Source: Candidatus Micrarchaeota archaeon
GTDB taxonomy: Archaea; Micrarchaeota; Micrarchaeia; Anstonellales; Bilamarchaeaceae
Assembly: GCA_038046765.1 (NCBI GenBank)
Contig: JBBSVN010000001.1
Coordinates: 18,108-82,107, forward strand
Length of the DNA: 64,000 nt
Reading direction: 5' to 3'
Shown here: piece by piece, positions 4,845-36,697 of the stretch
How positions within the stretch are numbered: the stretch's first letter is position 1
How the letters are laid out: each line of letters opens with the position of its first letter
Program-made: the position numbers and the translations under genes
Notes under the pieces: model-generated
The model's input: only the letters and a program-made list of their open reading frames with translations
Told to the model about the DNA's origin: nothing
The model's database searches: none

Positions 4845-4902
4845 AGTTAAAATTTGGGTATAAAGCATAACCTTTTAAACACTTTTTGACACATATTTGG
4901 AT

Positions 4903-6831
4903 ATGACAAGAAGGCTCACTCCAAGTAGTGGCAATGTAATACCTATAGAAGCAGCTAGAACTAGAGCTTTTGCCGTCAAAACTGACCAAGATCACAAATC
5001 TTTAGGGATAGTTACTGGAGAAAGGGGAGGTTATGAACTAAAAAAATCTATTTTCAAGAACAATGGCACAACTGAATTATTTTTAGCAACTGATTTAAAA
5101 ACTAATAAAGAGGTAATCGTAAAAAGAGTAACTCTTAAGGCAGAAGATTCAACCTTTAAACTTGCCCCAAGGGAATTTGACATTATAAACTATCTAGATC
5201 ATCCAAACGTGGTTAAAGCGATTGATCAGACTATGACATCGAAGGAAAAAGACGGAAACCAGATAACCGAGTATTTCTTAGTAACAGAAAAAGTCGAAGG
5301 CAAAAATCTAAGGGAACATAGCGCTTTTGGCACTAATTTTTCAGAAGAAGAAAAAATAGAAATTATAACACAGATTTTGCAGGCACTAGAATATCTTCAT
5401 GATAGTGGCGTAATACACAGAGATGTAAAACCAGAAAACATAATGGTTCATAAAACAGAAGATGGAAAAATAAATGTAACTTTGGTTGATTTTGGCGTTA
5501 CGCTTACTGCAGTTAGTACTGGTTCAACCGCGCTTCTTCCAATATTTAGTAAGGGTTTTACTGCTCCAGAAGTTTTAGCATGTGCATCTGATGTTGATGG
5601 CAGAGCGGATATCTATTCTACTTCAGCAGTTTTGTCCTGGATTTTTACCGGTTTAGATGGAACAGATATGCAAACTAAATTAAGGACCAAAGAAGAAATT
5701 GACTGCATTGATGGTCAACTTTTAAGTATAATCAAAAAGGGATTAAAGGCAGACCCTGAAGAAAGATATCAAACTGCAAAGGAAATGAAGGAAGCTTTGG
5801 TTAGTGAGATAGAAGAAGGGGCAGATATTGCCGTAGTTGAACCCATTGACAAAGTGAATAAAATTTATCGAGAACTTAAAGCAAGAAAAATGGAATTAAG
5901 AACTAAGTATGCACAATTGGATCGTTCATTTAAGGAAAGCATGAGAAAAACTTTGAAATATGTTATCCCGTCATTTGTAGTTTCTGTAGCTAGTCTTGGT
6001 TATATTTTGACTGAACAACCAAAAGGACTGGCAGCTTTGCTATCTAGTATTGGAGTCTTCTTAGGTTTAACTGTTGCTGGTTTAGTGTTGCATTTTAAGT
6101 CCAAGGCTAACGCGGATAAACTTAAAAATCTGGATGACCTAGAATTACAAATCGGTGATCTTGCATCAGATTTAGAAGAAATTGAAACAATTCGGGATTT
6201 GGATTCTAAGCGTGATCTGTTTTTAGAAGCTAGATCAGAATCTTTGCTTAGGCTTAAGTCTTCAAAAAAAGCATTAAAAGAAGCAAAAGTCAAAACACAA
6301 GACACGGATGTTGTCGACTGGTTCCTTCTTGACCTTACAAGTAAAGAAATCCAAGTCCATAAAAACTTAAACTTAGAACAAACTCTTGCATTAGAAAGAC
6401 TAGATTTTGTAATTTTACCAAATAGTGTTATTGATGAGATTTTACAAGATGGTGCGTTAAGAGAAAAATACACAAAGCTAGGTTTATTCCCCTGCAGGAC
6501 TGGAACATGGGTAGAACTTGATGGAGAAAATTGTATAATAAAACAGGATGGAAAAAGTAAGAAAACAAAACTGCATATACAAGATGGCTGGTATAAAAAA
6601 GATAACCTCGGCATTCCTTCTGGCGAACCTACAAATGAAAATGATCAAGATGCAAGATTTTTGTGGAGAACTAAAAAATATGTTGGCCCTTTGGTCCGTG
6701 GCTTCGACTGGAACGACTTCAACGGGCAGGATGTCGGTGCCCTCAGAAGGCTCGACGGCGGTTACGGGGTGGCGTGCATTTCTCGAGCCAAATACGAAGA
6801 AATTTTGGCTCGATCTATTCAAAATGAATAA
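4903..6831 (+). CDS. Hanks-type Ser/Thr kinase with two TM helices, coiled coil and C-terminal putative DGR-variable domain
   Basis: VIVK, HPNVV, HRDVKPEN, DFG, TAPE, DIYS motifs; two hydrophobic segments around aa 355-398; C-terminal domain similar to 35139-36014. Confidence 0.85.
   Translation: MTRRLTPSSGNVIPIEAARTRAFAVKTDQDHKSLGIVTGERGGYELKKSIFKNNGTTELFLATDLKTNKEVIVKRVTLKAEDSTFKLAPREFDIINYLDHPNVVKAIDQTMTSKEKDGNQITEYFLVTEKVEGKNLREHSAFGTNFSEEEKIEIITQILQALEYLHDSGVIHRDVKPENIMVHKTEDGKINVTLVDFGVTLTAVSTGSTALLPIFSKGFTAPEVLACASDVDGRADIYSTSAVLSWIFTGLDGTDMQTKLRTKEEIDCIDGQLLSIIKKGLKADPEERYQTAKEMKEALVSEIEEGADIAVVEPIDKVNKIYRELKARKMELRTKYAQLDRSFKESMRKTLKYVIPSFVVSVASLGYILTEQPKGLAALLSSIGVFLGLTVAGLVLHFKSKANADKLKNLDDLELQIGDLASDLEEIETIRDLDSKRDLFLEARSESLLRLKSSKKALKEAKVKTQDTDVVDWFLLDLTSKEIQVHKNLNLEQTLALERLDFVILPNSVIDEILQDGALREKYTKLGLFPCRTGTWVELDGENCIIKQDGKSKKTKLHIQDGWYKKDNLGIPSGEPTNENDQDARFLWRTKKYVGPLVRGFDWNDFNGQDVGALRRLDGGYGVACISRAKYEEILARSIQNE
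6682..6813 (+). other. Putative DGR variable region plus downstream hairpin
   Basis: 61/93 G+C over 6685-6777 inside an AT-rich gene; NNC codons; perfect 10-bp stem TCGAGCCAAA (6783-6792)/TTTGGCTCGA (6804-6813). Confidence 0.6.
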
Positions 6832-34954: not shown

Positions 34955-35138
34955 ACAATAATATGAGATTAACTTAATTAAAAAAGCTACGTGCCAATGG
35001 CTAAGAACTAAAGGCAACTAAATAGGTACCTTGGCTTAACCGTATATTAAGTTTATTTTAATGTAAAACAATGGTTTATAAATACTTCGATGCACATTGT
35101 ATTTACTAATAATTACAACATTTAGAGGCGTTAATTTT

Positions 35139-36014
35139 ATGAGCACAACAATTCAACAACCAACTCAAAGAATAAGAGGCCCAAAGTTAGAAGTGTTCAT
35201 ATCAAGATTATATGGTCTTCCTTTTGATGAAGAATTAGCTAGAGCAGATAAAGATAATAGAGTTATTGTTTCTAGTAAAAGACTAAGTTCAGCCCTAATT
35301 GGAAGCGATGAATGGAAAGCAATCAAAAAAGCTTTTGCTTGCTGGTCTGGAACTATGACTGCTTATGTTGAACCAAATGTAGAACTTGGGCAAGCTGCTA
35401 GAAGACTTAGCGATCTTGGAGATTTTCCTAAGTTAAGTAAAAATCAGTACGAACATGCTATTGTTTATACTGACCCCCAAACAGGAAATGATTGGATCTT
35501 TCCAATTCCAGAAAAATATTTAAGAGTAAAAAATGGAATTTTAGTTATTGAGCACCCTGATTATGGTTTAGATAGAGAAGGAACAAATAGATTAGTTTTA
35601 CCAGTATCAGTTGAAAGAGTTGATTTAGTTGAAGGTTTTCCAGTTCGAAATGGTTGGTATTTACCAGATGCGATTCATGGAATACCTCAAACAAGTCAAG
35701 TAGATTATTCAACTAAAGCTAGACACTTGTGGAGAGTTGATAAAAGAGTTGGTCCGGTTAGGCTCGGCTACGACGACATGGGCGGCATCGACGACATTAA
35801 CGGGCGGTATGTCGACTTTGACGATAGGCCGTCCAATGGTTACGGGCTGGTAACAGAGGCCAGCGAAGCTGGCACGCCGGCTACAAAAGACGAAATTAAA
35901 ACTAGTAGACAATCTAGCGTCATTCAGTTAAATGAAGGAGACTCCGAATTAATAATTCGAGGAAGCGATGCAAAAATTGAAGCAGCTTTAAGACTTTTAG
36001 AAAGTTTGAGATAA
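35139..36014 (+). CDS. Orphan protein with putative DGR-variable domain
   Basis: Shares NGWY..D..HGIP...ARHLWR....VGP...G with the kinase C-terminus. Confidence 0.7.
   Translation: MSTTIQQPTQRIRGPKLEVFISRLYGLPFDEELARADKDNRVIVSSKRLSSALIGSDEWKAIKKAFACWSGTMTAYVEPNVELGQAARRLSDLGDFPKLSKNQYEHAIVYTDPQTGNDWIFPIPEKYLRVKNGILVIEHPDYGLDREGTNRLVLPVSVERVDLVEGFPVRNGWYLPDAIHGIPQTSQVDYSTKARHLWRVDKRVGPVRLGYDDMGGIDDINGRYVDFDDRPSNGYGLVTEASEAGTPATKDEIKTSRQSSVIQLNEGDSELIIRGSDAKIEAALRLLESLR
35748..35873 (+). other. Putative DGR variable region plus GAA-triloop hairpin
   Basis: 60/100 G+C over 35751-35850; NNC/NNT codon run; GCCAGC-GAA-GCTGGC at 35859-35873. Confidence 0.65.
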
Positions 36015-36022
36015 AATTAATT

Positions 36023-36421
36023 TTAAATTTTTCTTAATGTCTCCTCTGGTTTAAGTATTATTATTTCCCTAAATTTCTCTAAGTCCAAGAGATGATGATC
36101 ATACGAAACAATAAAATCAGCATTAGCTTCTACTGCCCCTTCTAAGACTTTGTCATCATCCGAATCTACTTTAATAAATTCTATTTTCTCTTTTGGAAAA
36201 ACTATTATTAAAATCTTTATAAGTTCCTTTATTCTCTCATCCTTCTCTTCTTCATTATGTTCGAAATCTCTTTTTAAAATTTCCCCATATTCTTCCAAGA
36301 TTTCTGGACTTGTAAATCCTTCGATTTGTTTTTCTTGTATTTTAAGAAGTAATTCATAAGCGACGCCCTTAGAGATCGTACCTGAAATTAGTACGTTTGT
36401 ATCAAGAAAAATCTTAGTAGT
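36023..36421 (-). CDS. PIN-family toxin lacking a canonical start codon
   Basis: Frame extends to TTKIFLDTNVLISG...SPEILEEY...DDDKVLE.A....ADFIVSYDHHLL; begins right after the antitoxin TAG. Confidence 0.8.
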   Translation of the reverse strand, partial: TTKIFLDTNVLISGTISKGVAYELLLKIQEKQIEGFTSPEILEEYGEILKRDFEHNEEEKDERIKELIKILIIVFPKEKIEFIKVDSDDDKVLEGAVEANADFIVSYDHHLLDLEKFREIIILKPEETLRKI

Positions 36422-36697
36422 CTAAGGAACGCCGCGCCTCTTGTGAACTATCTTTACTACGTCTTCTTGTTTTATTCCCAAAGATTTGGCTTTTTTACTG
36501 CTCTCTTCTACAAGTTTGTCCCATGAAGATTTAAAATCTTCTTTACTCGGTTTGTAAACTTTTTTTAGCATAATTGTATCTCCTGTACCAAATACTGCGA
36601 ATACTGTACCTTTTCCCGCTTTAATCTCGTTACGAATGTCCAATGGTATTACTATTTGCCCTTTTGATGTCATATGTGTTATTTCGACTTCCGACAT
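36422..36697 (-). CDS. AbrB/MazE/SpoVT antitoxin
   Basis: MTSKGQIVIPLDIR...DTIMLKK; GGTGAT SD. Confidence 0.9.
   Translation of the reverse strand: MSEVEITHMTSKGQIVIPLDIRNEIKAGKGTVFAVFGTGDTIMLKKVYKPSKEDFKSSWDKLVEESSKKAKSLGIKQEDVVKIVHKRRGVP

Follow-up and report, generated by a model that had tools for sequence, protein, structure and literature searches.

The window analysed here, a stretch of 64,000 nucleotides from a Candidatus Micrarchaeota archaeon, contains an open reading frame of 291 amino acids that we call target gene B. The first-pass annotation had marked in this frame a GC island (60% over 35751-35850) followed by a GAA-loop hairpin, and frame, island and hairpin are all present where it placed them. 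The features referred to below are as follows; positions without a contig name are those of the window.

6686-6766, plus strand: VR of the window kinase (gene 4897-6831), matching TR2 with 15 adenine changes, 0 others and no gap
35057-35089, plus strand: promoter-like box of 33 nt with a TATA-like core, common to six stand-alone genes of the C-type-lectin (CLec) family
35139-36014, plus strand: target gene B, ORF of 291 aa, paralog of the DGR cassette-1 target
35175-35861, plus strand: CLec-fold domain, residues ~13-241, predicted (AlphaFold2, VIA-align)
35585-35908, plus strand: homogenised tract of ~300 nt with a putative gene-conversion signature, taking in VR, IMH and hairpin
35749-35844, plus strand: variable repeat VR-B, from TR1 (C4:13424-13338), of which 87 bases align
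35777-35785, plus strand: in-frame 9-nt insertion beside an AAC run, its placement ambiguous by several bases
35844-35849, plus strand: IMH-like hexamer GGGCTG (family GGGGTG; TR counterpart GAAATG)
35859-35873, plus strand: hairpin GCCAGC-GAA-GCTGGC, 6-bp GC stem with GAA triloop, within the coding sequence
35862-36014, plus strand: C-terminal tail of ~50 aa, modelled as a flexible linker, then a helix, two strands and a helix (pLDDT 48-83)

Neither an RT nor a TR is present at the locus of gene B, whose neighbours are an unannotated 515-aa ORF and a pair of PIN-domain and MazE-like genes. This toxin-antitoxin-type pair (36023-36697, minus strand) ends 9 nt past the gene B stop; the PIN ORF apparently has no ATG start in its listed frame.

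The genome carries two DGR cassettes in the order target-TR-RT, both on contig C4, and a search of the genome for the RT family returned only two matches, both on that contig. An adenine-aware scan of all 20 contigs with TR1 and TR2 as templates found five VRs. TR1, directly upstream of its RT gene, differs from the adjacent cassette-1 VR by 15 adenine changes and 0 others; TR2 differs from the adjacent cassette-2 VR by 13 adenine changes and 0 others. TR1 also matches the VR of gene B. Two Ser/Thr kinases with a CLec-like C-terminal domain (window 6686-6810; C4:137448-137372) are clean remote targets of TR2 that have no GRA-triloop hairpin; the window kinase has a 10-bp stem with an 11-nt loop in its place. 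The second kinase (C4:139124-137322) shows 16 adenine changes and 0 others over TR2 positions 5-81, with 2 mismatches at the 5' edge of TR2. Outside its clean VR, the window kinase has no flank identity with cassette 2 (0.46-0.52). In this genome, remote homing thus takes place even where the flanks are not converted.

In neither cassette does an ORF of at least 70 aa lie wholly between target and RT, and a search for the bAvd family gave 0 matches. Both cassettes fit the avd-less TR-RT architecture A1 as set out in the available text of Wu et al. (PMC5758913). Two four-helix-bundle genes, L096 (C4:26669-26983) and L097 (C16:22506-22820), are weakly Avd-like, with 28.6 and 21.1 bits against an Avd cut-off of 80, and sit ~12 kb from cassette 1 and 5 kb from a gene B paralog on C16, respectively. 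The non-coding spacers between target stop and TR (C4:13620-13440; C4:72205-71960) have, by eye, several short blocks in common. In these two avd-less cassettes the spacers upstream of the TRs are perhaps a structured 5' part of the template RNA.

The GC content of 0.60 in the gene B island stands against 0.35 upstream within the same gene, and 60% GC is reached by 0.03% of the 1,513,499 100-nt windows of the genome. On this rarity and on the match to TR1, a chance GC island was rejected. VR-B departs from TR1 at 8 of 25 adenine sites and at 3 of 62 other sites (35787, 35798 and 35817; Fisher p 0.0016 for the adenine bias), and TR homology is intact over its 5' 21 nt and its 3' 27 nt. The cassette-1 target (C4:14492-13620) is a full-length paralog of gene B with 76% amino acid identity over 291 aa, and a further paralog (C16:28740-27982) has 62%. 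We regard it as near certain that gene B is a dispersed paralog of a DGR target with a VR derived from TR1, and its earlier assignment as a dispersed target of DGR type is upheld by the match of VR-B to a template beside an RT gene on C4. An element of this type is expected, the remote-target arrangement being already known.

The likeness of gene B to the C-terminus of the window kinase, which the first-pass annotation had pointed out, is genuine, though not strong (36% over 72 aa, interrupted by a gap of 4 residues; tblastn E 2e-5). Its proposal that the two islands use different templates also holds, TR1 serving gene B and TR2 the kinase; a shared template was rejected, as alignment of VR-B with TR2 gives 14 non-adenine mismatches and 15 gap columns. 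The 4-codon gap between the two proteins is made up of three codons inserted in gene B relative to TR1 and one codon by which TR1 and TR2 differ. The picture of one variable module grafted onto different proteins suits the two kinases but not gene B, which is a paralog of the cassette target along its whole length.

Pfam and NCBIfam scans of gene B, as well as a phmmer search of PDB sequences, yielded no match; a formyltransferase profile match (E 0.003) was rejected as chance, given the CLec fold result. The AlphaFold2 model, built from 35 homologs (pLDDT 86.5), had CLec-fold chains by title in all top 50 rows of a VIA-align search (Z 6.1-8.1, model range 13-248). The DGR target AvpA (5ioo) aligned over 154 residues with an rmsd of 4.0 and a middling Z of 7.4 that ties with animal CLec domains, so that the CLec subclass is not separable on Z. 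Foldseek returned no match to the model at E 0.001 or better, and in the ESM Atlas the matches were unnamed archaeal clusters at 0.96 and, at 0.76, no more than a weak lead to Lcl_C. In the model, the VR corresponds to a loop of low confidence, after which comes the last strand, encoded by the IMH. Gene B is thus predicted to be a stand-alone CLec-fold binding protein, with a putative binding loop encoded by the VR. Homologs were found in 29 of 61 genomes searched, with up to 39 matches in one genome; two of them carry Micrarchaeota-type source names, and the runs with the best match are groundwater metagenomes. No near strains were found by protein or 21-nt pattern in metagenome contigs, nor by the 21-nt pattern in genome contigs, search sets from which near-identical records may be missing.

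To calibrate the differences between VR-B and TR1, we aligned each TR with its adjacent VR in 31 RT loci of the same order. Sixteen full pairs resulted (14 from relatives, 2 own); the other 15 loci gave no TR/VR pair above the score limit and were left out of the counts. Twelve pairs have 0 non-adenine changes and four have 1, a total of 4 in 899 sites. Against this background the occurrence of at least 3 such changes, as in VR-B, has a binomial p of ~0.002, which is overstated inasmuch as kin are not independent; the rate is about ten times that of the background. Any placement of the 9-nt insertion leaves at least 3 non-adenine mismatches in VR-B. These lie at TR positions 30, 41 and 60, with 30 nt between one of them and the insertion, and the change at 35798 arose on the gene B side, because TR1 and TR2 both have C where gene B reads T. 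Indels, in contrast, occur in 7 of the 16 cassette pairs, including insertions of 15 and 6 nt, and we rejected the 9-nt insertion as a sign of age or inactivity. Such an insertion is a regular product, consistent with slippage in AAC runs; in the consulted text of Wu et al., indels beside AAC are attributed to template slippage (PMC5758913). The earlier suggestion that the islands might be older stands in part, as regards the drift of VR-B from TR1.

Published rates frame these counts. According to the available part of Wu et al. (PMC5758913), non-adenine changes occur in 23% of DGRs; a target in CPR-type elements can have several, and such changes can differ among the targets of a single DGR. 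The authors suggest that the DGR itself makes them. In vitro, misincorporation at non-adenine template bases amounts to 0.3-1.6% in the accessible text of Handa et al. 2021 (PMC7826257). Nearly all DGR clusters reach 75% of mismatches at adenine in the section seen of Roux et al. 2021 (PMC8144416). In VR-B, 8 of 11 mismatches with TR1 face adenine (73%), or 11 of 14 when the IMH positions are included.

A tract of gene B that extends well beyond VR-B is unusually close to the cassette-1 target. Outside the VR, DNA identity between the two genes is 93-98% within the tract and 65-83% over 35225-35584. Expressed by residues, base differences amount to 26.7% (31-150), 4.4% (151-203), 2.4% (237-250) and 13% (251-291). 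Synonymous differences fall from 27/76 outside to 4/48 inside the tract (Fisher p 6e-4), whereas the control pairs show no such drop (25/80 and 8/29 for gene B and the C16 paralog; 23/79 and 8/29 for the cassette-1 target and the C16 paralog). Protein-level selection does not account for the tract; an exchange of ~300 nt with VR, IMH and hairpin would, and constraint on the DNA itself near the VR may have raised the identity further. From these base counts, we consider a conversion event between the paralogs, in either direction, a candidate for having conveyed a TR1-type VR together with its homing signals. The non-adenine divergence of VR-B from TR1 (3/62, 4.8%) is close to that of the flanks from the cassette gene (7/159, 4.4%), as would be expected if VR-B was last set at about the time of the conversion. 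Of two relative pairs compared in the same way, one shows a milder likeness (0.83 near the VR against 0.59 further up) and the other has 0.53 and 0.42. In the literature searched we found no description of gene conversion among DGR target paralogs, although one may be in print.

The IMH reads GGGGTG in 15 of the 16 cassette pairs and GGGCTG in gene B, where the C at 35847 turns Val into Leu in the last strand. The altered base faces a TR adenine and could thus itself be a product of homing; L072, a remote target of one relative, likewise has a base other than G at this position. The gene B hairpin is identical to that of the cassette-1 target, and among the 55 six-bp GRA hairpins of the 1.5-Mb genome these are the only 2 with a perfect 6-bp stem of at least 5 G/C. 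The folding energy of the hairpin region is ordinary (z -1.38; 23 of 200 shuffled sequences are no less stable). Of 21 cassette pairs, 14 have a GAA-loop stem of at least 4 bp. By eye, six cassette targets (L028, L031, L037, L043, L046 and L053) have downstream GC stems with TTT, CAA or TCT loops, so that the GRA triloop, though frequent, is not universal in this lineage. As reported in the seen part of Guo et al. 2011, IMH, hairpin and short homology suffice to make a target.

Both RT genes of the genome are split and out of frame at an (AG)7 tract (C4:12866-12879 in L001; C4:71405-71418 in L002). In each gene the tract sits inside the overlap of two open frames, and the two tracts are among just 3 in the genome with six or more AG units. 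We extended the count to 31 RT loci (relatives L027-L055 and our own), 28 of which held both halves of the gene. The RT is out of frame in 22 of the 28, and in every one of these a G, C or AG repeat lies in the open-frame overlap, within the same linker; such a tract is also present in 3 of the 6 loci that are in frame. No G, C or AG tracts occur elsewhere in the matched parts of the RT genes of the 28 loci. Homopolymer assembly errors could contribute to these counts, and L029 has an N gap at its tract. The distribution suggests that the RT repeat tract may act as a slippage on/off switch. Our literature searches found no description of an RT repeat switch in DGRs, though one may exist in print, including in Paul et al. 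2017 (Nat Microbiol 2:17045), the main survey of DPANN and CPR DGRs.

Putting these observations together, we favor, with a probability of about 60%, the reading that gene B is a converted and now stale remote target. Gene conversion between paralogs would have given gene B or the cassette-1 target a TR1-type VR with its homing signals. Since then, the cassette copy would have been rewritten from TR1, consistent with its 0 non-adenine changes, and gene B mostly not; gene B would have accrued ordinary mutations at the level of its flanks and preserved a single older variant in the form of a fixed paralog. A possible reason for the stalling of gene B is the G-to-C change in the IMH. Because both RTs are out of frame at (AG)7, rewriting of any target is probably limited to times or cells whose tract length brings the RT back into frame. 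The staleness of gene B is carried by three substitutions only.

Other records of the same allele bear on this reading. The VR-B peptide is found unchanged in two other database proteins, P0003 and P0037. In addition, a contig from a second study spans 35794-35944 with 0 differences and confirms two of the three VR-B substitutions as well as the IMH base. An unchanged allele across samples fits a stale target and a system switched off alike, since both RTs are out of frame. Contig depth over VR-B in runs X1-X3 is lower (~5-8 against 9-12), which we left out of account because contigs cannot show allele shares.

A rival to which we give about half the weight of the stale-target reading is that gene B remains a working remote target of TR1, its insertion and non-adenine changes having arisen in one slippage-prone reverse-transcription event in the AAC run, or persisting where integration renews just the 3' part of the VR. 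The adenine bias of VR-B and the identity of its hairpin with that of the cassette speak for this, as does the retention of the TR base at 8 adenine sites where the cassette-1 VR has lost it. Clean remote targets exist in this genome (both kinases) and in relatives (L063, L068 and L072), and the available text of Wu et al. describes, besides AAC-side slippage, a variable 5' boundary of transfer (PMC5758913). Against this rival stand the three non-adenine changes spread over TR positions 30, 41 and 60 on a background of 4/899, a share of adenine mismatches just below 75%, and an IMH unlike that of 15 of the 16 cassette pairs.

It is improbable that VR-B is instead the clean product of a third, TR1-like template absent from this 89.7%-complete assembly. 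Templates have indeed been lost or left unassembled, as two orphan GC islands with IMH-like ends match neither TR. However, the TR-diagnostic adenines at 35802, 35808 and 35814 each come from one contig with a TR1-type loose end (three runs at 80% likeness, among the best 40 of 137 rows; contigs drop rare variants), no second TR1-like contig appeared among the same best 40 of 137 rows from the three runs, and the genome has 2 RT matches only.

Least probable of all is that an assembly chimera, joined across the near-identical flanks, produced the gene B locus or its resemblance to the cassette gene. In favor of this, contigs of three runs collapse over 35610-35769 and break at 35861, and P0037 joins the cassette-1 N-terminus to the VR and tail of gene B, which means either a crossover in one or more assemblies or a genuine recombinant. 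Against it, the 151-nt contig of the second study runs without a difference from the 3' half of VR-B into tail bases specific to gene B, and in P0003 residues of B type precede a VR-B that is itself followed by the B tail. The flanks of the two genes, too, are not identical, differing at 7 of 159 sites.

A family census by profile search and tblastn yielded 13 genes. In 5 of them the VR matches a resident TR, 2 contain orphan GC islands, and 6 are without an island (best 90-nt GC 0.48-0.54). Only gene B and the two cassette targets, 3 of the 13, have a GC-rich GRA hairpin after the VR; both kinases lack one. The expectation that all family members would carry both island and hairpin is thus not borne out. 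The orphans (C1:2147-2791 and C4:193926-193285) are stand-alone kinase-type domains that have GC islands and IMH-like ends but fit neither TR of this genome; their VRs come from lost or unassembled templates.

We surveyed remote copies in 15 genomes of relatives, recovering the TR in 9. Non-adjacent copies range from clean (L063, L068, L072) to degenerate (L014, L071), with adenine and other changes of 21/0 in L063, 17/1 in L068, and 19/1 plus a 9-nt deletion in L072. The CLec family is greatly expanded in some genomes (39 matches in G035, 12 in G001, 11 each in G003 and G004). No RT match at E 1e-20 was found in G035 or G003, both of them incomplete genomes.

The 33-nt box upstream of gene B recurs before other stand-alone CLec genes, its sites being 35057-35089 in the window, C4:14542, C4:73105, C7:99744, C16:28789 and C2:115830. 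A degenerate pattern built by eye from five paralogs matched 6 genome sites, against 0 for the reversed control; the C2 site was not in the build. Judged from these sites, a common regulation of the stand-alone CLec genes is possible.

More speculatively, Micrarchaeota-like archaea may hold a two-tier repertoire in which the RT repeat switch would set off bursts of mutagenesis at cassette targets, and conversion would move VR and homing signals to co-regulated paralogs that store variants; we regard this as rather unlikely at present. Equally tentative is the corollary that dispersed paralogs might be re-licensable as targets and decay once they are no longer converted. With similar reserve, gene B could be seen under such a scheme as a stored variant, the C16 paralog as a decayed one, and P0037, which might also be a mis-assembly, as a real recombinant.

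For DPANN archaea, RT-less VR loci were left as fossils or remote targets in the available text of Paul et al. 2015 (PMC4372165). The present genome has clean remote targets, the slightly drifted gene B, orphans and decayed paralogs together with both templates, and so renders the question testable. What our analysis adds is the conversion tract and the connection with RT genes whose frame is broken at a repeat tract, as it is in 22 of 28 related loci.

Among the closest known counterparts are the DGRs and 'partial DGRs' of the DUSEL4 Nanoarchaeota, which, as described in the consulted part of that paper (PMC4372165), likewise comprise several cassettes per genome, with an IMH of the type TGGGGT and an IMH* of the type TGGAAT, and have a GRA-triloop hairpin inside the target gene. 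Their RT-less loci with target, VR and cis elements were read as 'fossils or diversified remotely'. In contrast to DUSEL4, so far as that text goes, the cognate TR is here identified, the drift counted, and a conversion tract with the cassette gene apparent; there is no avd-like ORF between target and RT, and the RTs are split at a repeat tract.

At the protein level, gene B resembles AvpA (PDB 5IOO; Handa et al. 2016, PMC5006420, from the part available), a single CLec domain with large inserts and an internal VR. As in gene B, the IMH of AvpA encodes the last strand, and a 46-aa tail holds the hairpin within the coding sequence. The ~50 aa that follow the VR of gene B, earlier thought unusual, thus appear ordinary for DPANN targets, since AvpA has 46 aa in that place with the hairpin inside. 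The two proteins are 9% identical, with no sequence match by phmmer or profile. The AvpA motifs GXXVVVYAH, HPXXXPFXG and RFXGV, given in the same text, are not clearly present in gene B, where only 'HP' and a final 'GV/GL' can be made out by eye.

The cyanobacterial remote variable proteins, as presented in the seen part of Vallota-Eastman et al. 2020 (PMC7517822), likewise comprise dispersed CLec paralogs that either stand alone or are attached to Ser/Thr kinases, and their TR/VR homology is graded. Unlike these, the host here is archaeal (Micrarchaeota), and gene B consists of a CLec domain only, with a VR that is internal rather than terminal. Finally, the available text of Wu et al. 2018 (PMC5758913) lists 73 non-adjacent targets in 45 of 372 DGRs, and describes both the A1 architecture of TR and RT with no accessory gene and one target with several non-adenine changes and an indel beside a clean sibling, all as found here. 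Conversion between paralogs is not discussed in that text. Remote targets are assigned there on adenine-only differences with minor exceptions, within which VR-B falls only marginally.
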